A DNA stretch of 54,515 bases from Minisyncoccota bacterium (lineage in GTDB: Bacteria > Patescibacteriota > Minisyncoccia > RBG-13-40-8-A), in NCBI GenBank assembly GCA_035528175.1, contig DATKZC010000007.1:1-54515 (forward strand), written 5' to 3'. The notes under the pieces are model-generated. The model was not told the DNA's origin. It saw only the letters and a list, made by a program, of their open reading frames with translations, and searched no databases. This document shows positions 854 to 54,051 of this stretch, piece after piece (the first letter of the stretch is position 1; each line of letters begins with the position of its first letter). The position numbers and the translations under genes are program-made.

Positions 854-973
854 CTAATTTGTTGATCGAACATGGCCTTGATTGTGCTCGTTTAATCGGT
901 TTTTTAAATCAATCGTGTAACCTGTATACAAATTGCCTTTATCAATACTTCTTAAAACATAAACATAAAACAT
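854..973 (-). pseudogene. GIY-YIG nuclease N-terminal fragment (39 codons, then stop)
   Basis: Translates as MFYVYVLRSIDKGNLYTGYTIDLKNRLNEHNQGHVRSTN*. This matches the GIY..YTG..R..EHN core of small GIY-YIG (URI) proteins, but the C-terminal half is absent. TATAAT (980-985) lies 6 nt from the ATG. Confidence 0.6.
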
Positions 974-3818: not shown

Positions 3819-4158
3819 ATAATTTTAAATTCTTTATAGTTTTACTTCTTAATGTGTTTTTTGGAAGCATATCATAAATTGCCCTTTTTAACGGCACGCT
3901 CGGGTCTTTTTTTAATAAATTCTTTAATATAATTGTGCTTATCCCGCCTGGATAACCGGAATAATGATGGTATTTTTTGTTTTCCATCTTGTTTCCCGTA
4001 TAAACTATTTTTGCAGTATTGAAAACTATCACTTTATTGTCGCTGACTTTATAGGCTGCAAAATTTGTATCATTTTTCCCACGTAAAAAAACAGCAACTT
4101 CGCTTGCCAATCTCCCAAGCACCTTTCCCGAAGCATCAATTGTATATATCTTTGCCAT
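3793..4158 (-). CDS. rplM: 50S ribosomal protein L13
   Basis: 121 aa. The N-terminus IDASGKVLGRLAS.VA..LRGK and the YSGYPGG motif are typical of L13. It sits directly upstream of rpsI, as in most bacteria. Confidence 0.93.
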   Translation of the reverse strand: MAKIYTIDASGKVLGRLASEVAVFLRGKNDTNFAAYKVSDNKVIVFNTAKIVYTGNKMENKKYHHYSGYPGGISTIILKNLLKKDPSVPLKRAIYDMLPKNTLRSKTIKNLKLYAGEIKEN

Positions 4159-9987: not shown

Positions 9988-11727
9988 TTATTTTAAAACA
10001 GCCTTGACACGACGCACGCCGGCTGATGATGATTCTTCTTTTAAGATTTTAAAATGTCCGAGCTGGCTGGTTCTTTGCACGTGCGGGCCAGAGCATATTT
10101 CCAAACTGAAAGTTTGCCCCGAGGAATTCGAGGGGGCACTTCCAATTGAATAAACTTTCACTTTGTCTCCATATTTACTTTCAAAAACTCCCATTGCGCC
10201 CATTTTTCTTGCCTCGTCCAAAGGAACCTCACAACAATCAATAGGCAGATTCTTTTTGATTTGTTCATTAACTATATCTTCAATTTCTTTCAATTGTTCT
10301 TTGCTCACTTTTTCCGAGTGGGAAAAATCTAATCTTAATCTTTCCGCAGTAATGTTTGAACCTTTTTGGAAAACATGTTCGCCCAAAACTTTGCGTAATG
10401 CAGCCAAAAGTAAATGCGCAGCAGTATGAAGTTTTGTCACCTGTTCTGAATTATCCGCCAATCCTGATTTAAACTTCCCAGCAGTAGCTGTTCGGGATAA
10501 TTGTTGATGTTTGGCAAATTCCTTTTGAAATCCTTTTGTAATTTCCTCCTCATCGTATTTTATCCCCTTGTTTTTTAATTCTTCTAAATATAGTTCAAAA
10601 GGAATTCCATTGGTTGAAAAAAAATTAAAAGCTGTTCGCCCCGTAATATTCTTTTCTAGTTCTTCTAGTCCCCTTTTAAGTGTTTTAGCAAAAACATTTT
10701 CTTCTTGTATTAGTTGTTTAATAATAAAATCTTTGTTATTTTCCAGTTCTGGCCATTCGTTTTTCATTAAATCAATTACTAATTTTCCAATTTCGTAAAT
10801 AAATAATTTTCTAATTCCAATTTTTTGACCATGTCCAATTGCTCGCCTAATTAATCTTCTTGCCGTGTATCCTTGCTCAATATTTGACGGCACAACTCCA
10901 TCCGCAATAATAAAAACTGATGCACGAATATGGTCAGCAATAATTCTCTCAGATTTTTTATCATAATCAGTTGCCATTTTTTTGATTGCTTCAATAATTG
11001 ATTTTAATGGCTCAATTTCATAAACACTTTTTGTATTATTCCTGCCTGCCGGCAGGCAGGTTAAAATCGCCACAGTTCTTTCAACTCCCATACCCGTATC
11101 AACATTCTTTTGCTTTAATGGTTCATACTTGCCATCCGCGGTTTTATTATATTCCATAAAAACATCATTCCAGATTTCCACGCCATCATAAAACATTTCA
11201 GTGCACGGACCACAAGGACCTGTCTTTCCGGCTGGTCCCCAAAAATTATCTTCTTTATCTAAAAATTTGATTTTTTTAATTCCCAATGATTTCCAGATTT
11301 CAGCGGATTCCAAATCCCGCGGGATTTGTTCCGAGCCTGTCGAGGAACCAGCGAAAACTGAAACTGAAATTCTTTTTTTATCCAATCCTAATTCTTTAGT
11401 CAAAAACTCTAAACTCATCTCTATTGCTTCTTTTTTCCAATAACTTCCAAAACTCCAATTTCCCAGCATTTCAAAAAAAGTTAAGTGCCAGTCATCGCCA
11501 ACTTCATCAATATCGCTGGTTCTAATACATTTTTGCACATTAACTAATTTATCCCCTGCCGGATGCTTTTCGCCCAATAAATACGGCACTAATGGATGCA
11601 TTCCTGCGGTGGTAAATAAAACCGTAGGATCATTTTCCGGAATTAAAGAAGCAGAAGGAATAATTTTATGTCCCCTGCTCTGAAAAAATTTCAAATATTT
11701 TTCTTTTAAATCTTTTGTTGTAATCAT
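9988..11727 (-). CDS. alaS: Alanine--tRNA ligase, short form lacking the C-terminal C-Ala/DHHA1 domain
   Basis: It has the class II catalytic core (FTTAGM, GNWSFGDYWK-like), the editing-domain HTAAHLL...CSGPHV Zn motifs, and ends about 40 aa later. I prefer the ATG at 11727 (the track's TTG is at 11730). Confidence 0.92.
   Translation of the reverse strand: MITTKDLKEKYLKFFQSRGHKIIPSASLIPENDPTVLFTTAGMHPLVPYLLGEKHPAGDKLVNVQKCIRTSDIDEVGDDWHLTFFEMLGNWSFGSYWKKEAIEMSLEFLTKELGLDKKRISVSVFAGSSTGSEQIPRDLESAEIWKSLGIKKIKFLDKEDNFWGPAGKTGPCGPCTEMFYDGVEIWNDVFMEYNKTADGKYEPLKQKNVDTGMGVERTVAILTCLPAGRNNTKSVYEIEPLKSIIEAIKKMATDYDKKSERIIADHIRASVFIIADGVVPSNIEQGYTARRLIRRAIGHGQKIGIRKLFIYEIGKLVIDLMKNEWPELENNKDFIIKQLIQEENVFAKTLKRGLEELEKNITGRTAFNFFSTNGIPFELYLEELKNKGIKYDEEEITKGFQKEFAKHQQLSRTATAGKFKSGLADNSEQVTKLHTAAHLLLAALRKVLGEHVFQKGSNITAERLRLDFSHSEKVSKEQLKEIEDIVNEQIKKNLPIDCCEVPLDEARKMGAMGVFESKYGDKVKVYSIGSAPSNSSGQTFSLEICSGPHVQRTSQLGHFKILKEESSSAGVRRVKAVLK
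10111..10137 (-). repeat. GC-rich element copy (PSxSSGQ family) in-frame in alaS, encoding APSNSSGQT
   Basis: The coding strand GCCCCCTCGAATTCCTCGGGGCAAAC aligns with copies in dnaK, the CsaA-like gene, cysS and the spacer at 38603. Confidence 0.6.
11041..11060. repeat. 20-nt perfect palindrome CCTGCCTGCCGGCAGGCAGG in-frame in alaS (CLPAGR)
   Basis: Self-complementary, 80% GC, and identical to 12687-12706 in mnmA. Confidence 0.8.
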
Positions 11728-11734
11728 CAATTTA

Positions 11735-11763
11735 ATTATAAGCTACAAATAAATCCATAGCAA
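11735..11763 (-). promoter_or_regulatory. Putative sigma70-type promoter of alaS (leaderless)
   Basis: Minus strand reads TTGCTA-17 nt-TATAAT, then 7 nt to the ATG at 11727. No SD is present. Confidence 0.5.
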
Positions 11764-11766
11764 CTA

Positions 11767-11795
11767 TTGACAATAATATGAATATGTATTAGGAT
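11767..11795 (+). promoter_or_regulatory. Putative promoter of the orphan gene at 11814
   Basis: TTGACA-17 nt-TAGGAT, followed by an AAGGAGG SD 5 nt before the ATG. It lies back-to-back with the alaS promoter. Confidence 0.45.
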
Positions 11796-11813
11796 TAGCA
11801 ATAAGGAGGATTC

Positions 11814-12155
11814 ATGAACATTATTAAATATCTGCAGATGCTGACGGAAACGGGACTTCTAGATTGGGTTTCGTTAGAGAAGGGCAAAAAATTCGAACTT
11901 CTATTCGAGCAATTCATCATCACCATCTTTGAAACGAACAAAGAAACGAAGGCCTGTTGGATTCTAGAAATCCACGACACAAAAGGAGGATTAAAAGAAC
12001 TTATTGGGTTCCACGACAAAAACAACGGGTATTGGGATGTTTGTCCTTTATATCACACCATCAAAACAAACTTGAATAAACCCCGTCCTCAATCTCTCTC
12101 CGATCTTCAAGAAAGAGTACTTGAAACCCTCTCAAAAGAACTTTTCTGCTGCTAA
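11814..12155 (+). CDS. Hypothetical protein (orphan, opposite orientation to both neighbours)
   Basis: 113 aa with a strong SD, its own promoter-like and terminator-like signals, and no recognisable motif. Confidence 0.55.
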   Translation: MNIIKYLQMLTETGLLDWVSLEKGKKFELLFEQFIITIFETNKETKACWILEIHDTKGGLKELIGFHDKNNGYWDVCPLYHTIKTNLNKPRPQSLSDLQERVLETLSKELFCC

Positions 12156-12169
12156 AATTGTAGCCAAAC

Positions 12170-12206
12170 AGGCCCCGCGCATAACAGCCGGGGCCTAATT
12201 TTTATT
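12170..12206 (+). terminator. Rho-independent terminator (probably bidirectional, shared with mnmA)
   Basis: Stem AGGCCCCG (12170-12177) / CGGGGCCT (12189-12196) followed by AATTTTTATTT. It lies between convergent stops at 12155 and 12220. Confidence 0.7.
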
Positions 12207-12219
12207 TATTTTTGTTTTA

Positions 12220-13245
12220 TTAAAGAATCACTCCTCCACCCATGAGTTCACCGTCTAAGTAAAACACCGCACTTTGACCAGAGGTAATTGCGCGCTGCGG
12301 TTTTTTAAAAACAATTTTACTGCCTTTAATTATTGCATCCGCCATTTTTGCCATGGAACGAATTTTAACTTTACATTTTCCTGTATATGGTTTTCCACTA
12401 ATCCAATTCATATTTTTCACAGCCATTCCTTTTTGCAATAAATCTTTTTTTGATTTGGATACAATTAAAGTATTTTTTTTATAGTCCTTTTTCACTACAT
12501 AATACGGCCCCCCGCTTAATCCTATGTTTTTTCTCTGTCCGATTGTATAAAAAATTAAGCCCTTATGCTCACCAATTTTTTTATTATCCATCGTAATAAT
12601 CGGGTCTGCCACGCAACTGCTGGGACGGGGTAAATCAAAACAAATATCCTGACTTTCTTTTTTATTGAATACTGGTAATTTGAATCCCTGCCTGCCGGCA
12701 GGCAGGTTTTTTGCCAATCCCCTAACTTGTTCTTTGGTATAATCGCCAAGCGGAAATAAAATCTTTGTTAATTGTTTTTGTTTTAAGGTCCAAAGAAAAT
12801 AACTTTGGTCTTTTTTTATGTCTTTAGCAATAAATAATTTTCCGTCTTTAATTCTGGCGTAATGGCCGGTTGCGATAAAATCAGCTTTTAATTGCACCAT
12901 TTTTTCTAATAAAAACCTGAATTTAATATATTTATTGCATTCTACGCACGGATTTGGCGTATTGCCTGATTCATATTCTTTAAGGGTATAATCAATCACC
13001 TGTTTTTTGAATTCTTTGCGCACATCTAAAACTTTAAAATCAATTTTTAGTTTTTTGGCGACAATCTTCGCATCCTGCGGATTACTATTCTTATGCATTA
13101 ACATAAAAATACCGACGACATTATATCCTCCGCCCAAGGCAGACAAGTCGTTTTTTAACATGGCAGCAGCAACAGAACTATCTACTCCGCCACTCATTGC
13201 AATAATTACCCTGCCTCGCCGGCAGGCGGCCCTTTTATTATCCAT
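12220..13245 (-). CDS. mnmA: tRNA-specific 2-thiouridylase
   Basis: 341 aa. It has the PP-loop IAMSGGVDSS, the catalytic CNK.IKF region and DQSYFL. Confidence 0.92.
   Translation of the reverse strand: MDNKRAACRRGRVIIAMSGGVDSSVAAAMLKNDLSALGGGYNVVGIFMLMHKNSNPQDAKIVAKKLKIDFKVLDVRKEFKKQVIDYTLKEYESGNTPNPCVECNKYIKFRFLLEKMVQLKADFIATGHYARIKDGKLFIAKDIKKDQSYFLWTLKQKQLTKILFPLGDYTKEQVRGLAKNLPAGRQGFKLPVFNKKESQDICFDLPRPSSCVADPIITMDNKKIGEHKGLIFYTIGQRKNIGLSGGPYYVVKKDYKKNTLIVSKSKKDLLQKGMAVKNMNWISGKPYTGKCKVKIRSMAKMADAIIKGSKIVFKKPQRAITSGQSAVFYLDGELMGGGVIL
12687..12706. repeat. 20-nt perfect palindrome CCTGCCTGCCGGCAGGCAGG in-frame in mnmA (LPAGRQ)
   Basis: 20/20 identical to the alaS copy but read in a different frame. 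Confidence 0.8.
13210..13230. repeat. Degenerate copy of the palindrome (CCTGCCTCGCCGGCAGGCGGC) at the mnmA 5' end, encoding AACRRGR
   Basis: It differs from the 20-mer by one inserted C and one lost A. It lies just upstream of the PP-loop codons. Confidence 0.6.
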
Positions 13246-13702: not shown

Positions 13703-14826
13703 AATCCCTCCTCTTTTAATTTCTCAATTAATTCTTTTTCTTTTTTAGATAATTTTTGCGGGATTTTGATTTTGATACGCACATACTGGTCGCCTCGGCC
13801 ATAAGAATTCAATCTTGGCATACCTTTTCCTGATAATTTAAACATTTTCCCGCCTTCTGTGCCTGCAGGAATTTTTAATTTTAAATCCCCTTCTAATGTT
13901 GAAATATCAATCTTATCTCCTAATACTGCCTGCGAAAATTTTATTTCTGCATCACAATAAATATCGTCTCTTTTCCTGATGAAAATCTTATGCGGCTTTA
14001 AACGTATGCGCACGTATAAATCTCCTGATATTCCGCCTTTTTTCGCTACCTCGCCTTTTCCTGGAAATTTTATTGTCTGTCCATTATCAACTCCTACCGG
14101 TAAATCAACTTTAATTGTTTCAATTTCACTTACCCTTCCTGTGCCCTTACATTCTTTACATTCTTTTTCATGCAGTTCGCCTTCGCCAGAACACTTCGGA
14201 CAAGTTATAACCTGCGAAAATGTTCCGAAAAAAGTTCTTTTTGTCTGTTGAACTTGGCCATTGCCCCCGCATTCAGGACATTTTTTCTTTCCACTTCCAG
14301 GCTCTCCGCCTGTTCCTTTGCAGTGTTTACAAATAATATATTTTTTTAAATTAATTTCTTTTTCAATGCCTGTAAATGCCTCTTCTAAAGTAATTTCCAT
14401 ATCAACCACAATATCTTTGCCGTGTTCCTTTCTCGTTCTTCTGCCTCCTCCACCTCCATTAAAAAATTGGCTGAAAATATCAGAAAAACTTCCGCCTCCA
14501 AAAATATCTCCTAAATCCCAGCCCGAGGATGGTCCGCCTTGGGCGGAAAATTCTCCTCCTTCTTGATAATTCCTGAAAATATCCTCCCAACTCATACCCG
14601 CACCTCCAAAACCAGCTTGATCAAAGCTTGACCCGAACTGGTCGTATTGCTGACGCTTTTCATCATTGGATAAAACTGAATATGCTTCATTAACTTCTTT
14701 AAACTTCTTTTCATCCCCACCTTTATCCGGATGATGTTGATGAGCAAGCTTTCTGAAAGCTTGCTTTATCTCTTCTTTATTCGCATCTTTATTTACTCCA
14801 AGTGTCTTGTAATAATCTTTACTCAT
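13699..14826 (-). CDS. dnaJ: Molecular chaperone DnaJ
   Basis: J domain with HPD (KLAHQHHPDKGG), a G/F-rich region and four CxxCxGxG zinc-finger repeats. Confidence 0.95.
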   Translation of the reverse strand: MSKDYYKTLGVNKDANKEEIKQAFRKLAHQHHPDKGGDEKKFKEVNEAYSVLSNDEKRQQYDQFGSSFDQAGFGGAGMSWEDIFRNYQEGGEFSAQGGPSSGWDLGDIFGGGSFSDIFSQFFNGGGGGRRTRKEHGKDIVVDMEITLEEAFTGIEKEINLKKYIICKHCKGTGGEPGSGKKKCPECGGNGQVQQTKRTFFGTFSQVITCPKCSGEGELHEKECKECKGTGRVSEIETIKVDLPVGVDNGQTIKFPGKGEVAKKGGISGDLYVRIRLKPHKIFIRKRDDIYCDAEIKFSQAVLGDKIDISTLEGDLKLKIPAGTEGGKMFKLSGKGMPRLNSYGRGDQYVRIKIKIPQKLSKKEKELIEKLKEEGL

Positions 14827-15600: not shown

Positions 15601-17520
15601 TTATTTCTTTTCTGTTTCCCCTTCGGGTATATCCGGATTCTTATCATCTTTTTTCTGCGCGTCTTGCTGGGCTTTATAGAGTTCTGTCCCAACTTTCTGA
15701 ATTGCTTGAGATAATTCATCAGATGCTTTCTTGATTTCACTCACGTAGGAATCTTTTCCGCCCGAGGCGGACTCGCCTTGGGCGAGTATTTTTTTCAGCG
15801 CCTCAATTTTTTCTTCAATTTCTTTTTTGTTCTCTTCTTTTATTTTAGCACCAAATTCTTTTATTGTCCTTTCGGTTGTAAAAACCAAAGTATCGGCGGT
15901 ATTTTTAACATCAACAATTTCTTTTTTCTTCTTGTCTTCTTCGGCGTGGATTTCCGCATCTTTTTTCATTTTTTCAATATCTTCTTTTGACAAACCCGAA
16001 GATGCTTCAATCCTGATTGATTGGATTTTATTTGTGGCTTTATCTTTTGCCGTAACGCTTAAAATCCCATTCGCATCAAGGTCAAAAGTAACCTCAATTT
16101 GGGGAATGCCTTTTGGAGCCGGTGGAATGCCATCCAAAATAAATCTGCCCAATGTTTTATTGTCAGCAGCCATTGGTCTTTCTCCCTGTAGAACATTAAT
16201 TTCAACTGATGGCTGATTATTCGCAGCAGTAGAAAATACTTGCGTTTTAGCAGCAGGAATAGTTGTATTTTTTTCAACCAGTTTCGTCATCACTCCGCCA
16301 AGAGTTTCAATTCCTAATGATAAAGGAGTGATATCCAGAAGCAAAACATCTTTCACATCGCCCTGGAAAATTCCTGCCTGTACAGCAGCGCCCGCTGCAA
16401 CCACTTCGTCAGGATTAATATCTTTATGCGGCTCCTTTCCGAATAATTCCTTTACTTTTTGCTGTATTAACGGCATCCTGGTCTGGCCTCCTACTAAAAC
16501 TACTTCATCAATATCGGACATTTTAAATCCTGAATCATCAACAACTTGTTTAGTGATTTTTGTCGCTTTATCAATATACTCTCCAACTAAATCTTCAAGT
16601 TTTGCGCGGCTAAATTTAATATTTAAGTGTCTTGGCCCATCTGCTCCGCTGGTAATAAAGGGAATATTTACTTCTGTTTCCATTGCCGATGATAATTCGT
16701 GTTTTGCTTTTTCTGCTGAATCTTTTAGTCGTTGCAAAGCCAGCTGGTCTTTTGATAAATCAACTCCTTCCTGTTTTTTAAATTCATCAACCAGCCAATG
16801 CATAATAATCTGGTCAAAATCATCGCCTCCTAAATGCGTATCTCCGCCTGTTGCTTTCACTTCAACTGTATCTTTGGAAACTTCAAGCACTGAAACATCA
16901 AATGTTCCTCCGCCGAAATCAAATACCACAATCTGCTCATCCTTTTTCTTATTTAAGCCATAAGCCAAAGCAGCTGCAGTCGGTTCATTGATAATTCTTT
17001 TCACTTTTAAGCCGGCGATTTCTCCTGCATCTTTGGTTGCTTTTCTCTGCGAATCGTTAAAATAAGCAGGAACAGTGATTACTGCTTCTTCTATTTTTTC
17101 TCCTAAACGGTCTTCGGCATCTTGTTTAAGTTTCTGTAAAATCATTGCGGAAATTTCAGCTGGGCCATACCATTTAGCTTGCCCTGAGCTTGTCGAAGGG
17201 TCACCCAGCTTGATTTCCACCGCTCCTTCTTTTGATTCTCTGATTTCATAAGGTAAAAGTTTTTTATCGCGCTGAACTTCGGCATCAGAATATCTCCTGC
17301 CGATTAATCGCTTTACCGAATAAATTGTGTTTTTGGAATTAGTTACTGCCTGTCTTTTTGCTAAGAGACCAACAAGCCGTTCATTGGCTTTTGAAACAGC
17401 AACAACAGAAGGAGTTGTTCTGTTTCCTTCTTTATTTTCAATTATTCTCGGCTCGCCTGCTTCAACAATCGCCATTGCCGAATTAGTCGTGCCTAAATCA
17501 ATACCTAATATCTTTGACAT
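15601..17520 (-). CDS. dnaK: Molecular chaperone DnaK (Hsp70)
   Basis: 639 aa with canonical [18 protein letters not shown] and [10 protein letters not shown] motifs. Confidence 0.97.
15754..15783 (-). repeat. GC-rich double hairpin in-frame in the dnaK C-terminal lid region, encoding [10 protein letters not shown]
   Basis: Coding strand reads CTCGCCCAAGGCGAG + TCCGCCTCGGGCGGA, two adjacent short hairpins. Its composition resembles the CGCCAAGG..CGGCG family. Confidence 0.5.
17176..17202 (-). repeat. GC-rich element copy (PSxSSGQ family) in-frame in the dnaK N-terminal domain, encoding DPSTSSGQA
   Basis: The coding strand GACCCTTCGACAAGCTCAGGGCAAGC aligns with the alaS, CsaA-like and cysS copies. 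Confidence 0.6.
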
Positions 17521-18619: not shown

Positions 18620-18628
18620 GAGTGCTAA
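18602..18628. promoter_or_regulatory. CIRCE operator (HrcA binding site), perfect consensus
   Basis: TTAGCACTC-ccttgtcaa-GAGTGCTAA matches TTAGCACTC-N9-GAGTGCTAA exactly. Confidence 0.9.
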
Positions 18629-18677
18629 TCAAAAACTCGTGCCTGCCCCGCAACTGCGGGGTCAAGAGAGTGCTAAT
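18615..18677. repeat. GC hairpin insert flanked by a direct duplication of the CIRCE right arm
   Basis: GTCAAGAGTGCTAAT (18615-18629) and GTCAAGAGAGTGCTAAT (18661-18677) flank a 31-nt segment. That segment contains the hairpin CCCCGC-aact-GCGGGG (18646-18661). Confidence 0.6.
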
Positions 18678-18678
18678 T

Positions 18679-18721
18679 AAAAAAGAGCCCGGGATGCGCT
18701 TGGTGCGCACACGCGGGCTCT
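18679..18721 (-). terminator. Rho-independent terminator of the SPFH gene
   Basis: Stem AGAGCCCG (18684-18691) / CGGGCTCT (18714-18721). The minus-strand hairpin is followed by TTTTTT, 13 nt past the stop at 18734. Confidence 0.7.
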
Positions 18722-46766: not shown

Positions 46767-47774
46767 ATGCGAATATTCAGCGGAATACAACCAACTGGAG
46801 AATTACATATCGGAAATTATTTAGCGGTGATTAAACAATGGGTTAATTTACAAAAAAAAGCAAAATGCGTTTTTTCTGTTGTTGATTTGCATGCAATTAC
46901 CATTCTATATAATCCAAAGCAAATGCAGAAAAATATCCTTTCCGTGACAATGGACTATTTGGCAGCAGGAATAGATTTTAAGAAAAATATTATTTTTGTC
47001 CAATCGCATATCAAGGAACATTCCGAATTGGCATGGCTCTTGGAAACCATCACTCCAATGGGCGAGTTGCAGAGAATGACCCAATTTAAAGAAAAATCAG
47101 AACAAAATAAAACGAATATTAACGCAGGGCTTTTTTCTTATCCTGTGTTGATGGCAGCTGATATTTTATTATACAAGGCTGACACTGTGCCGGTTGGCGA
47201 AGACCAACAACAGCACGTGGAATTAAGCAGAACTTTGGCAAGAAAATTCAACAACAAATTTGGGAAAATCTTTCCCGAACCAAAAACGCAACTCCCTGAA
47301 TTCGGCGCAAGAATAATGTCGCTAGTTGACCCGTCGCAAAAAATGAGTAAATCAATTCCGCAGGGATGCGTTTTCCTTTCCGATAAGCCGGAAATAATCA
47401 GGCAGAAAATAAGAGCTGCGGTCACGGACTCCGACAAAGAAGTGAAATTCGACGAAAAAAACAAACCAGCAATTTCTAATCTGCTTACTATTTATCACCT
47501 TTTCTCTAATAAATCCATCTCTGATATTGAAAAGAGATATCAAAACAAAGGCCCCGCCTTCGCCGAGGCTTCGGCGGGCAAGTATGCGGAATTTAAAAAA
47601 GATTTAGCGGAAATAGTGGTTAATGGATTAAAAAAATTCCAAGAAAAAAGAAAACAGCTTGAAAAAAATCCCCAGCAGATTAAAAAAATTCTTGCTGACG
47701 GAGCAAGAAAAGCGCAAAAAATCGCAACCCAAACAATGAAAGAAATTAAGGTAAAAATGGGGTTAATTCCTTAA
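46767..47774 (+). CDS. trpS: Tryptophan--tRNA ligase
   Basis: 335 aa. GIQPTGELHIGNY (HIGH region), GEDQ.QH.EL.R and KMSKS are canonical. Confidence 0.95.
   Translation: MRIFSGIQPTGELHIGNYLAVIKQWVNLQKKAKCVFSVVDLHAITILYNPKQMQKNILSVTMDYLAAGIDFKKNIIFVQSHIKEHSELAWLLETITPMGELQRMTQFKEKSEQNKTNINAGLFSYPVLMAADILLYKADTVPVGEDQQQHVELSRTLARKFNNKFGKIFPEPKTQLPEFGARIMSLVDPSQKMSKSIPQGCVFLSDKPEIIRQKIRAAVTDSDKEVKFDEKNKPAISNLLTIYHLFSNKSISDIEKRYQNKGPAFAEASAGKYAEFKKDLAEIVVNGLKKFQEKRKQLEKNPQQIKKILADGARKAQKIATQTMKEIKVKMGLIP
47550..47582 (+). repeat. GC-rich hairpin element in-frame in trpS, encoding (G)PAFAEASAGK
   Basis: GGCCCCGCCTTCGCCGAGGCTTCGGCGGGCAAG contains the hairpin CGCCGA-ggct-TCGGCG. It is the same element as in recR but read in another frame. 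Confidence 0.7.
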
Positions 47775-49058: not shown

Positions 49059-49541
49059 ATGGAGAGCGAAGTAAAACAATATGAATTAATTTGTATTTTA
49101 GAGCCTCATTTAGAAGAGGCTGATTTAGATAATTTCAAGCAATCATTTGAGAAGATTGTGAGCGACAACAATGGCCGGATTATCCATTTTATGGACTCAA
49201 AAAAATGCAACCTTATTTACCCTATTAACAAACAGAAACAAGGTATTTATCTCGTATCTCATATTTCACTGGAGCCGAAAAACATTGCCAATATTTCTAA
49301 TGAACTAAAAACAAATAAAAATGTTTTAAGGAGTTTAATCACTATTTTGGAAACCCCGTCAGAGCCAATAACCGAAAAGCCGAGAAAGATTATAAAAAAA
49401 TACGCCACCAACGCAAAACGCAGACAGGCGGGCCCGCCCGCTTCGCAGCGAGACGAGCCACGATCCGAAAGTTCGAGTAAAGATGATAAAATAAAACTAG
49501 AAGAAATCGATAAAAAATTAGACGAATTGGTAGGTCTATAA
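49059..49541 (+). CDS. rpsF: 30S ribosomal protein S6 with a roughly 60-aa C-terminal extension
   Basis: The first roughly 95 aa are S6-like (YE...IL.P.L.E......). It sits in the conserved rpsF-ssb-rpsR order. The tail is basic/acidic and carries a GC-rich insert. Confidence 0.85.
   Translation: MESEVKQYELICILEPHLEEADLDNFKQSFEKIVSDNNGRIIHFMDSKKCNLIYPINKQKQGIYLVSHISLEPKNIANISNELKTNKNVLRSLITILETPSEPITEKPRKIIKKYATNAKRRQAGPPASQRDEPRSESSSKDDKIKLEEIDKKLDELVGL
49419..49478 (+). repeat. 60-nt GC-rich insert in the rpsF tail, encoding RRQAGPPASQRDEPRSESSS
   Basis: It contains the 12-nt perfect palindrome GGCGGGCCCGCC (49427-49438) and the CGCT-tcgc-AGCG hairpin. The CAGGCGGGCCCGCC core matches rpsI 3735-3749. 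Confidence 0.6.
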
Positions 49542-51804: not shown

Positions 51805-54051
51805 TTAAAACTCATCTTCTTTGGGTTCAGATTCTTTCAGCTTTTCTTCATCTTCCTCAATTTCCTCTTCTATTTCTTCTTTTTCTTCCTCATTTATGTT
51901 TTCTTCAACAACTTCATCTAAATCGCTTAATGGTTCTCTCGACTCCGCTCGGGATAAATCTTCTTTTCCTATTAAAACATCTCTTGGCTTGGCTCCGTCT
52001 GCAGGACCGACAATCCCCTGCATTTCTAGCATGTCCAATAAACTTGCCGCGCGCGCATAACCGATTCTAAACATTCTTTGTAAATATGATGCTGAGGCCT
52101 TGCCAGTTTTAATTACCATATCTTTTGCCTCATCTAACAACGGGTCATCCAATGCTAATCCACTGCTACCCATTACTCCTTTTTCTTCCGGCGCTTTAGT
52201 GATTTCTTCCTCATACTCAACCTCACCAGCTTCCTTTTTTAGAAATTTAACCACGCGCTGGACTTCTTTTTCAGAAACATAAACACCCTGAATTCTGCGT
52301 GGCTTGCCCACATCACCTGCCATAAACAACATATCGCCATTGCCGAGCAATCTCTCGGCTCCAGACGTATCCAAAATAGTTCGAGAATCAACATTTGAAG
52401 CAACCTGGAAAGCAAGTCTACAAGTAATATTTGCTTTAATCAAACCAGTAATGACTTCAACAGACGGGCGCTGAGTAGATAAGACCAAATGAATGCCCAC
52501 AGCGCGCGACATTTGCGCTAAACGCACAATCGAACCTTCAACTTCTTTACCATAAGCAGCCATAATGTCAGCAAGTTCATCAACAATAATTACAATAAAC
52601 GGCAGAATATCAGCCGGAGATTTTTTCACAATTTTCTCATTATAAGAAGCCAAATCTCTTGCTCCTATACTGGATAAAAGCTTATACCTCTCCTCCATTT
52701 CTTTAATCGCCCATTTAAAAGCATTGATGGTCTTATTCGTATCAACAATAACCGGAGTTAATAAATGAGGGATACCATTATATAAAGGAAGCTCAACTCG
52801 TTTCGGGTCAATCATAATAAATTTTAATTCCCAAGGTGACTTTTGATAAAGCAAGCTGCTGATAATTGTATTGATGCAAACGCTTTTTCCGGTTCCTGTT
52901 GCTCCGGCAATCAACATATGCGGCATTTTAATAAGATTTGCCCAGACAGATTCACCCGCAACATCGCGACCTAAAGCAAGATTAAGATTGTGGCCATTTT
53001 TCTTATAATTGTATTCGTCCATCATATTCCTCAAACGGACTAAAGTTGCGCTCTTGTTCGGAATTTCAATGCCAACCAAGGAACGTCCGGGAATCGGCGC
53101 TTCAATCCTAATAGGATGAGCTGCCAAAGATAAAGAAATATCGCGGTGCAAAGTAGTAATTTTTGAAAGCTTTACCCCGCCCGCGGGTCTTAAGGTATAT
53201 TGAGTAACGGTTGGACCAACATTAACTTCTGCCATTTCCACTGGAATACCGAAATTATTCAATGTTTTTTCAATAATACTCTGATTAAGTTTTATATCCC
53301 CGCTCGCCGGGCATCCTCTATCCTCTTCCAGTAAATCCAAGGGCGGAAAAGTATAATCCTTGATATTTGTAGGAGTTGTGGCTAATAATTCTTCCCTATT
53401 TCCTTCTTCCGATTCTTTTACATCAAGCTTTTGCTTAGAAAATATATTTTTCACCAAACTGGCAACCTTCTTTTCTGACTGGTCAAAACCGATTCCTTTG
53501 ATTTCCTTAGAAAGTTTTTCTGCAATTACTTCTTCCTCTTCTTTCTCTTCTTTTGGGGCCCTTTTTAAAGGAATATTAAAAGCAATAAGCACGGAAATAA
53601 AAAGCCCGGCTGCAAAAACAACCAAACTCGCCCACTTACCAATAAGTTTTAAAAATGGCCAAGAAAAAATATATCCGAGCCAGCCGGCAATACGAGTATC
53701 ATTCGGAAAAAATATCTGAATAATCGCCAGAAAACAAAGAATAAAAAGAAGTATTCCTAATAAAGTTGAAAGATAAACATTTTTGTGAATCTCTTTTAAA
53801 ATTGCGATACCTGCAGAGACAAAAGCCAATGGCACCAACCACAGGCATTTACCAAAAATAAACCTTGAACCATCAAGCAGATACTTACCCAACACCCCAC
53901 TGGCTGACTGGAAACTTAAAACAAAAAGTACTGCTAGAGTGAAAAGCACAACCACGATTACACCGTGTTTGGTTTCGGGGCTGATATTCAAATAAACCTT
54001 CTTTTTTTCTCTATATTCTTTCTTGTATTTCTTGCGCTTTCTTTTCGACAT
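51805..54051 (-). CDS. ftsK: DNA translocase FtsK/SpoIIIE
   Basis: 748 aa with 4 N-terminal TM helices, a linker, a motor domain (Walker A GATGTGKS, Walker B VIIVDELAD) and a gamma wHTH (ASYLQRMFRIGYARAA.L.D.LE). The tail is acidic. Confidence 0.94.
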   Translation of the reverse strand: MSKRKRKKYKKEYREKKKVYLNISPETKHGVIVVVLFTLAVLFVLSFQSASGVLGKYLLDGSRFIFGKCLWLVPLAFVSAGIAILKEIHKNVYLSTLLGILLFILCFLAIIQIFFPNDTRIAGWLGYIFSWPFLKLIGKWASLVVFAAGLFISVLIAFNIPLKRAPKEEKEEEEVIAEKLSKEIKGIGFDQSEKKVASLVKNIFSKQKLDVKESEEGNREELLATTPTNIKDYTFPPLDLLEEDRGCPASGDIKLNQSIIEKTLNNFGIPVEMAEVNVGPTVTQYTLRPAGGVKLSKITTLHRDISLSLAAHPIRIEAPIPGRSLVGIEIPNKSATLVRLRNMMDEYNYKKNGHNLNLALGRDVAGESVWANLIKMPHMLIAGATGTGKSVCINTIISSLLYQKSPWELKFIMIDPKRVELPLYNGIPHLLTPVIVDTNKTINAFKWAIKEMEERYKLLSSIGARDLASYNEKIVKKSPADILPFIVIIVDELADIMAAYGKEVEGSIVRLAQMSRAVGIHLVLSTQRPSVEVITGLIKANITCRLAFQVASNVDSRTILDTSGAERLLGNGDMLFMAGDVGKPRRIQGVYVSEKEVQRVVKFLKKEAGEVEYEEEITKAPEEKGVMGSSGLALDDPLLDEAKDMVIKTGKASASYLQRMFRIGYARAASLLDMLEMQGIVGPADGAKPRDVLIGKEDLSRAESREPLSDLDEVVEENINEEEKEEIEEEIEEDEEKLKESEPKEDEF
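51931..51957 (+). repeat. GC-rich element copy inside ftsK in antisense orientation to the gene, read as LSRAESREP
   Basis: The plus strand GACTCCGCTCGGGATAA aligns with the intergenic GACTACGCTCGGGGCAAG at 38607-38624. Confidence 0.45.

Follow-up and report, generated by a model that had tools for sequence, protein, structure and literature searches.

A 20-nucleotide palindrome inserted in frame in alaS and mnmA recurs across phyla beside small GIY-YIG nuclease genes at tRNA loci

A 20-nucleotide (nt) perfect palindrome, here called PAL (CCTGCCTGCCGGCAGGCAGG), is specifically enriched across bacterial phyla and is a conserved cis-partner of genes for GIY-YIG nucleases of about 80 amino acids (aa; UPF0213/Slx1-like) that lie between tRNA copies. 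We characterised PAL from contig DATKZC010000007.1 of the Minisyncoccota assembly GCA_035528175.1, a stretch of 54,515 nt referred to throughout as the window. There it sits inside alaS, which encodes alanyl-tRNA synthetase (AlaRS), and mnmA. All three copies in the window are secondary insertions of a hairpin element and keep the reading frame. Judging from the sequence comparisons below, we lean towards seeing them as orphan copies of the cis-element of a GIY-YIG/tRNA cassette, and we infer that the nuclease may mobilise PAL.

Results

PAL is 80% GC in a window of 36% GC. The initial annotation had reported identical, self-complementary 20-mers of that composition in alaS and mnmA; exact search returned these two copies, and none of 100 dinucleotide-preserving shuffles of the window held a match at up to three mismatches. 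An edit-distance search of the 54.5 kb (up to four edits) found a single further copy at 13210–13229, CCTGCCTCGCCGGCAGGCGG, which differs from PAL by one insertion and one deletion and had no match in 50 shuffles. This is the degenerate copy that had been read as AACRRGR ahead of the MnmA PP-loop. All three lie within 2.2 kb, and the other 52 kb hold none. PAL is free of stops in all six frames, its two strands being identical, and encodes PACRQAG, LPAGRQ or CLPAGR. As first described, the two genes read it in different frames, alaS as ..ILT CLPAGR NN.. and mnmA as ..AKN LPAGRQ GFK... As many homologues begin at MSGGVDSS, the true mnmA start may be downstream of the third copy.

Empty sites at both protein and DNA level establish that these copies are insertions, not ancestry. 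In an alignment of 120 AlaRS homologues, 118 of the 119 other proteins lack exactly seven residues between GMGVERTVAIL and NNxKSVY, among them the closest relatives at 75–77% identity; the initial annotation, which had the window AlaRS about seven residues longer here than that of E. coli, was right on the length difference. The internal LPAGRQG of MnmA is absent from its closest homologues (P0122–P0128), and the N-terminal AACRRGR from P0125 and P0127, which read MDNKR/VIVAMSGG (a slash marks the empty site). Codon by codon, syntenic contigs of relatives show equally clean sites in their DNA. In alaS, L159 has ATT TTG/AAT where the window has ATT TTA (A+PAL) AAT. At the internal mnmA site, which is empty in L159 too, L156 and L158 have GCG AAA AAA/TTT against GCA AAA AA(PAL+G)A TTC, and at the 5' site L158 has ATG GAT AAT AAA AGG/GTA ATT, to which the window adds GCCGCCTGCCGGCGAGGCAGG. 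That CLPAGR and LPAGRQ are ancestral or convergently selected protein motifs is scarcely credible: nothing beyond their presence speaks for it, 118 of 119 AlaRS homologues and the closest MnmA homologues lack them, and the same DNA is read in three frames. The original argument, that protein-level selection does not explain two such copies and that they are inserted DNA, therefore holds.

The insertions preserve frame and fall where the proteins tolerate them. Although the palindrome itself is 20 nt, as initially described, the unit inserted in the window is not: every coding insertion compared is 21 nt, with an extra base that varies by site, namely A+PAL in alaS, PAL+G within mnmA, and PAL with an internal extra G or C at the mnmA 5' end. 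Frame preservation suggests that the window inserts are translated as extra residues. Copy 1 occupies a loop in the AlphaFold model of the window AlaRS, a coil after helix 215–222 with a predicted local distance difference test (pLDDT) score of 68 against 86 and 83 for its neighbours; copy 2 falls in a gap region of the MnmA alignment, and copy 3 at the 5' end of the gene. All three thus lie in tolerated parts of essential genes. Across related genomes the same inserts appear in decayed forms: SACRRGR, PACRRGR, AACRRGR and LARRGGR; TCLPVGR; and LPVGRQG.

The same gene sites appear to have been filled more than once. At the identical alaS position, protein P0017 (locus L156) has A+PAL altered by one C-to-T change, and in a neighbour-joining (NJ) tree, a rough one like that for MnmA, it and the window protein fall in different clades, each amid empty-site relatives. 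In the MnmA NJ tree, the internal site shows independent filling in the window and in the sister pair P0185/P0189, of which P0189 has two tandem PAL copies; no fewer than five separate clades have the 5' site filled. Such recurrence reflects either strongly site-preferring insertion or a small number of tolerated in-frame positions.

Other insertions occur in the same two genes of relatives. At the same 5' site, the N-termini of MnmA homologues P0124, P0132 and P0177 are extended by MKI(V/K/E)N(C/S)KLKI... The extensions resemble a translated AT-rich heptamer repeat common in these genomes, and are a further sign of insertions accumulating just upstream of MSGGVDSS. In L159 alaS, a nested double palindrome at nt 269–323, CCCGCCTCG[ACTCGCGGAGACGAGTCGA]CGCGAGGCGGG, adds 14 residues in the conserved GNWS.G.YW motif region of AlaRS. 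A second palindrome family stands in frame in the AlaRS of relatives L241 and L242, as TGTAGGACGTC-C-GACGTCCTACA (CRTSDVLH) and TGTGGGACG-TCGTA-CGTCCCACA (CGTSYVPH), with compensated changes in its arms. A similar hairpin, GTAGCACGTCTGACGTGCTCAC, occurs twice upstream of GIY-YIG genes that lack PAL (L198, L224).

PAL is tied to one family of small nucleases. Elsewhere some copies appear to interrupt tRNA genes, but ARAGORN showed the interrupted genes to be partial copies with an intact tRNA 60–280 nt away. Between the tRNA copies lies a small open reading frame (ORF) with a GIY-YIG domain (PF01541, E = 2.5e-8 to 2.6e-12). The association appears from both directions. From the PAL side, 1.23 Mb of DNA selected for PAL contains 11 ORFs of the family, and 7 of them have PAL no more than 150 nt away. 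From the protein side, we scanned metagenome contigs with the nuclease profile alone and took the best 80 of 517 relatives, chosen blind to PAL; between −130 and +330 nt of the ORF start, PAL was present exactly in 32 of the 80, at up to two edits in 55 and at up to four edits in 67, against 0.1 of 80 in a shuffled control. Most of the other 13 loci have a different GC-rich palindrome at the same place.

The partner proteins are little more than a catalytic domain. They span about 77–90 aa and have no separate DNA-binding domain. Among PDB structures the family matches UPF0213 members 1zg2 (E = 3e-10) and 1ywl, and SLX1 weakly. Existing annotation says only "GIY-YIG nuclease family protein" or "endonuclease", and the named family records come from Patescibacteria and Bacteroidota, two phyla that hold PAL. 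No other enzyme family, and no transposase family, recurred among the 110 largest neighbours of orphan PAL copies. Two GIY-YIG domains stand in other settings. In a Thermodesulfobacteriota genome (L060, about 3861–4100), one is joined in frame to an upstream ORF of 370 residues, and PAL is placed about 60 nt upstream of the domain. In L093 (4758–5042), a member of the family lies inside a 23S rRNA gene insertion with no adjoining PAL.

PAL, nuclease gene and duplicated tRNA form a cassette of two types. Type A runs from a 5' tRNA fragment with PAL through the GIY-YIG ORF to an intact tRNA, the ORF often ending inside that tRNA; type B runs from an intact tRNA through the ORF to a 3' or full tRNA copy with PAL. 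An intact tRNA directly adjoins the ORF at 14 of 15 loci by Rfam and at 51 of 80 by ARAGORN; most of the remaining loci are truncated contigs or of type B. The tRNAs include Arg, Leu, Lys, Phe, Gly, Met, Asn and Thr. In the complete genome of an isolate, Croceiramulus getboli (CP123444.1), two cassettes with exact PAL stand in tandem at tRNA-Arg(TCG).

PAL enters the tRNA copies cleanly and at preferred positions. In at least nine loci it is a 20-nt insertion between adjacent tRNA nucleotides without target duplication. The D-loop/D-stem junction on the 3' side of the D-loop received 27 of 47 insertions (..GGTA/PAL/GAGC.., ..GGCAGA/PAL/CGCG..), usually at A21/G22, and the remainder went into further loop/stem junctions in the D, anticodon and T arms. 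In many cassettes PAL is near the middle of the duplicated segment. The raw insertion is thus 20 bp, yet within ORFs only 21-nt derivatives survive, adding seven residues that would be translated through. Insertion into functional tRNAs, or a new tRNA intron, is rejected: ARAGORN and Rfam show an intact copy beside the interrupted one, so PAL occupies a redundant copy, whereas an intron would interrupt a functional gene and be removed from the RNA. A possible exception is a viral contig (L145, 2239–2330) in which PAL lies exactly at the long variable-arm position of a tRNA-Met and ARAGORN accepts a 92-nt tRNA; the tRNA may be functional and tolerate PAL. The related L122 has the same junction with the T arm partly missing.

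PAL is far more conserved than the gene it adjoins. At 27 loci with exact PAL upstream, where PAL is identical at every nucleotide, the nucleases share a mean identity of 54% (minimum 33%) and host GC ranges from 32 to 54%. The hairpin itself is also constrained. Leaving positions 5, 12 and 16 free, a scan returned 42 exact PAL, 30 CCTGTCTGCCGACAGGCAGG and 4 CCTGACTGCCGTCAGGCAGG; in all, 36 variants were compensated for the 5–12 pair against one for the symmetric 5–16 pair. This covariation identifies the selected structure as a 6-bp stem (1–6 with 11–16), a TGCC loop and a CAGG tail, which the perfect palindrome forms on both strands; a perfect 10-bp symmetric stem is unsupported. The frequent single variants G8A, C9A and C13T fall in the hairpin loop on one strand or the other. 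A second covariation scan, at positions 3, 14 and 18, was too noisy to contribute.

Constraint of this kind could also mark a functional cis-element (a protein-binding site, terminator or RNA-stability hairpin) that is kept by selection at each location and is not mobile. The stem covariation and strong sequence conservation fit that idea, as do the many intergenic copies placed directly after stop codons or extending existing hairpins. It nevertheless strikes us as improbable, given that essential ORFs contain copies, read in different frames, that close relatives lack. Most PAL variants, moreover, carry single uncompensated changes from the consensus, the pattern of decay. The asymmetric variant occurs in both orientations relative to the nuclease ORF, which runs contrary to an RNA role and favours one at the DNA level.

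PAL is spread widely across bacterial genomes. The exact 20-mer occurs in at least 120 stretches of a one-genome-per-species collection, whose record titles name Patescibacteria, Omnitrophota, Bacteroidota, Planctomycetota, Gamma- and Deltaproteobacteria, Thermodesulfovibrionia and Chloroflexi; among the matches listed, GC content runs from 30% to 72%. Bacteroidota isolates with PAL include Winogradskyella, Flagellimonas, Longitalea and Flavivirga. The viral contigs of IMG/VR contain exact PAL in 35 stretches (42 places), whereas two composition-matched control palindromes gave no match there. The control that was folded, an arm-swapped palindrome, is as stable as PAL, and hairpin stability alone is therefore rejected as the cause of the enrichment. 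No exact match turned up in 9.6 Gb of records from cultured phages and plasmids. Rfam has no family covering PAL, and the full-text literature searched held no description of its sequence, peptides or keyword combinations, although coverage was incomplete and an earlier description is possible.

A short GC-rich palindrome shared by unrelated taxa is a classic warning sign of a sequencing, adapter or assembly artefact, the more so when most records are metagenome-assembled genomes. Here such an origin is very improbable. Contiguous gene sequence flanks the copies, and all three in the window preserve frame. Copies are inherited and mutate among relatives assembled by different groups in independent studies, and PAL occurs in isolate and complete genomes while missing from the cultured phage and plasmid records. 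The initial annotation had itself named absence from the reads as grounds for abandoning its proposal, and inheritance, decay and isolate genomes all point the other way.

About a fifth of the genome copies in the species collection lie in long open frames (by eye FtsK, GatB and RfbB) and the others are intergenic, often at the tip of an existing hairpin (L079, L067, L019, L025), inside another PAL (L018, L042, L021) or amid tandem repeats of 7–9 nt. Across 123 flanks the only preference is A before and T after PAL, with no conserved tetranucleotide, and a flanking direct repeat of at least 5 nt accompanies 5 of the 123. With the clean tRNA insertions, this leaves regular target-site duplication unsupported. 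The repeat arrays, seen in L101, L082, L050, L058, L129, L123, L139 and others, have locus-specific units (AATTACG, TCTAAAA, GAGTGATC, others) and sometimes look like a flanking direct repeat of 7–14 nt. They could arise by slippage at a stalled hairpin or by repeated cycles of cutting and repair.

The window features are collected in Table 1. The truncated family member listed there has no adjoining PAL or tRNA and is the sole trace of the putative partner enzyme in the window. The 113-aa ORF between alaS and mnmA has no Pfam or PHROG match; L159 has it too, and L156 and L157 lack it, their alaS and mnmA abutting. L242 has three other ORFs in this gap, which indicates that the gap takes up accessory genes.

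Table 1. Features of the window discussed in the text, with positions in window coordinates
Feature	Position	Strand or location	Description
PAL copy 1	11041..11060	inside alaS	exact CCTGCCTGCCGGCAGGCAGG; with extra A/T base a 21-nt, 7-codon insertion (T-CLPAGR) between GMGVERTVAIL and NNTKSVYE
PAL copy 2	12686..12706	inside mnmA	exact 20-mer 12687-12706 plus extra base (C on + strand, 12686); adds LPAGRQG between GLAK(K>N) and FKLPVF
PAL copy 3	13210..13230	5' end of mnmA	decayed, 21 nt, sense strand GCCGCCTGCCGGCGAGGCAGG; read AACRRGR before SGGVDS PP-loop
alaS	9988..11730	minus	short AlaRS, 580 codons; PF01411, PF07973; host of copy 1
mnmA	12220..13245	minus	tRNA 2-thiouridine synthase; host of copies 2 and 3
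Truncated GIY-YIG family member	854..973	minus	39 codons (MFYVYVLRSIDKGNLYTGYTIDLKNRLNEHNQGHVRSTN), then stop; E = 1e-12 against the family hidden Markov model
113-aa orphan ORF	11814..12155	plus	between alaS and mnmA, on the opposite strand

Further GC-rich inserts lie elsewhere in the window. An in-frame 24-nt insert in dnaK at 17176–17199, CCTTCGACAAGCTCAGGGCAAGCT (PSTSSGQA), is shared with L159 and L160 and absent from L158 dnaK; we take it to be the widespread "FDKLRAG / LRQAQG / PSTSSGQ" repeat found in spurious ORFs of many phyla. Hairpin inserts that relatives lack stand in frame in dnaK at 15757–15786 (ACTCGCC-CAA-GGCGAGT and TCCGCC-TCG-GGCGGA) and in dnaJ at about 14518–14562 (TCCGCC-CAAG-GCGGA, read FSAQGGP). 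The TCCGCC..GGCGGA hairpin also stands beside PAL in L016 and L086 and in a tRNA copy of cassette L163. GC-rich hairpin islands lie within window ORFs at 47549–47579, 49419–49450 and 53172–53191 (KGPAFAEASAG, RRQAGPPASQR and LRPAGGVK). On the minus strand at 18620–18700, two TTAGCACTC half-sites in the CIRCE operator region upstream of hrcA are separated by a GC-rich hairpin insert (CCCCGCAGTTGCGGGG then CAGGCACGAG).

Discussion

The association of PAL with a nuclease gene suggests a route by which so short a hairpin might move. We put forward, tentatively, that the 20-nt hairpin is cut and pasted by the GIY-YIG nuclease of about 80 aa, acting structure-specifically on cruciform or hairpin junctions, and that the nuclease gene crosses phyla on duplicated tRNA genes, with universal D- and T-loop sequences as portable homology. 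In the reading towards which we lean, the nuclease would be a structure-specific nicking enzyme, probably like Slx1, that prefers to act in cis or locally and recognises the PAL hairpin or cruciform. It would cut at stem–loop junctions, and excised hairpins would be re-inserted or copied at nicks in nearby DNA. Local spread of this kind would leave orphan copies clustered together, like the three in 2.2 kb of the window. PAL in the cassette might, in addition, interrupt the direct repeat of the tRNA and destroy any nuclease site that the redundant copy contains.

Several observations weigh against this reading. We know of no GIY-YIG enzyme that catalyses transposition or ligation. The only family member in the window is truncated and 10 kb from the PAL copies, and of the PAL copies in species-representative genomes about 95% lack a GIY-YIG gene closer than 150 nt. 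Recurrence at the same nucleotide in distant lineages may reflect selection for permissive in-frame sites and not targeting. Finally, the association would also be expected if PAL moved by other means and then accumulated, or was selected, in a dispensable tRNA copy.

This last point leads to the main alternative, which we consider less likely than that reading: PAL may be an independent selfish palindrome, spread by host replication or repair, or by another enzyme such as a Y1/HUH transposase of the kind that moves repetitive extragenic palindromes (REP), with GIY-YIG cassettes only collecting it. The redundant tRNA copy would then be a neutral, hairpin-rich sink, or its interruption would be selected because it stabilises the nuclease gene against repeat-mediated deletion or destroys a nuclease target. 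Most PAL copies are indeed orphans far from any GIY-YIG gene. The mid-segment position in duplicated tRNAs is what a repeat-breaker would show, and in a minority of cassettes other GC-rich palindromes occupy the same tRNA positions, so any hairpin insert may suffice. A passive sink, however, would gather each host's own repeats, whereas 67 of the 80 cassettes share one sequence family (32 exactly) across hosts of 32–54% GC and nucleases 54% identical. Nor did the neighbours of orphan copies yield a recurring transposase family, or the 123 flanks a GTAG-type head or other conserved flank.

PAL resembles known short repeats without belonging to any one class. REP and REPIN elements, mobilised by RAYT proteins (Y1/HUH), are extragenic and species-specific and carry a GTAG-type head beside an imperfect palindrome. 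PAL is like them a short GC-rich hairpin repeat, a non-autonomous population tied to a nuclease gene of single-copy type flanked by the repeat, and a sequence in which the hairpin as well as the letters is constrained. It differs in its partner, a GIY-YIG domain protein and not a Y1 (IS200/IS605-like) transposase, for which no dedicated whole-genome search was made. It also lacks the GTAG-type head, lodges in tRNA gene copies, enters ORFs and is identical across phyla. Rickettsia palindromic elements (RPE), which Ogata et al. are said to have described in 2000, are reportedly 100–150 bp long and confined to Rickettsia and its relatives; we know of no partner enzyme for them. Like PAL, they stand in frame in conserved protein genes, and they are translated as extra loop residues, as PAL probably is; but PAL is 20–21 bp and occurs in Patescibacteria, Bacteroidota, Planctomycetota, Omnitrophota and others.

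Two further classes share the small size or the non-autonomous habit. The GC clusters of yeast and fungal mitochondrial DNA, 30–50 bp long and usually with short target duplications, are likewise small GC-rich palindromes spreading in an AT-rich genome, optional between strains and occasionally in frame (var1). They are organellar, however, and have no tie to a GIY-YIG gene at tRNA loci. MITEs (miniature inverted-repeat transposable elements) are also non-autonomous, have inverted repeats and can yield in-frame peptides. To our knowledge PAL is about one fifth to one half the length of the smallest of them. It differs in having no target-site duplication (at least nine clean tRNA loci; a flanking repeat of 5 nt or more at 5 of 123 copies) and no DDE-transposase parent, although longer elements bounded by CCTGCCTGCC...GGCAGGCAGG were not searched for.

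By analogy, the nearest characterised protein is SegB of phage T4. This free-standing GIY-YIG homing endonuclease is encoded within a cluster of tRNA genes, recognises a conserved tRNA loop motif (the T-psi-C stem-loop) and has a DNA-binding region and a 27-bp asymmetric site (PMC2330249). Both genes lie among tRNA genes, and the loop-motif recognition parallels the D- and T-loop junctions at which PAL sits in the disrupted copy. The PAL-linked proteins differ in comprising only the catalytic domain, at about 80 aa, and neither a palindromic companion nor tRNA duplication is described for SegB. Measured against free-standing GIY-YIG homing cassettes in general, they share the catalytic domain and the lodging by a conserved target gene whose host function is preserved, but lack a DNA-binding domain with a long asymmetric site. 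GIY-YIG ORFs in rRNA-gene insertions of candidate phyla radiation (CPR) bacteria have been described as sparse, of neither intron class and probably outside homing (PMC11270868). They are small GIY-YIG ORFs of the same kind in the same phylum, and the L093 member lies within such a 23S rRNA insertion. A term search of that paper's text found no mention of palindromes or tRNA.

The finding thus brings together known kinds, namely hairpin repeats that have a partner nuclease and free-standing GIY-YIG genes located at tRNA loci, with a real chance that the chemistry of mobilisation is new. If the proposal is right, PAL would be the smallest mobile DNA known with an autonomous partner, moved by a transposition chemistry unrelated to that of DDE, HUH, serine or tyrosine enzymes. 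Very short hairpins, and not just elements of 100 bp and more, would act as mobile DNA. They would be a general source of seven-residue loop insertions in essential proteins of small-genome bacteria, remodelling AlaRS, MnmA and probably DnaK and DnaJ in streamlined genomes.

PAL accounts for a sequence that recurs in spurious ORFs across metagenomes (PACRQAG, LPAGRQ, CLPAGR), which helps annotation. If an 80-aa nuclease does recognise a 20-bp site, the pair could have practical applications. A cultured flavobacterium carries the cassette, which puts the question within reach of experiment. The partnership with PAL offers a first testable role for a widespread, uncharacterised branch of the UPF0213/Slx1-like GIY-YIG family.

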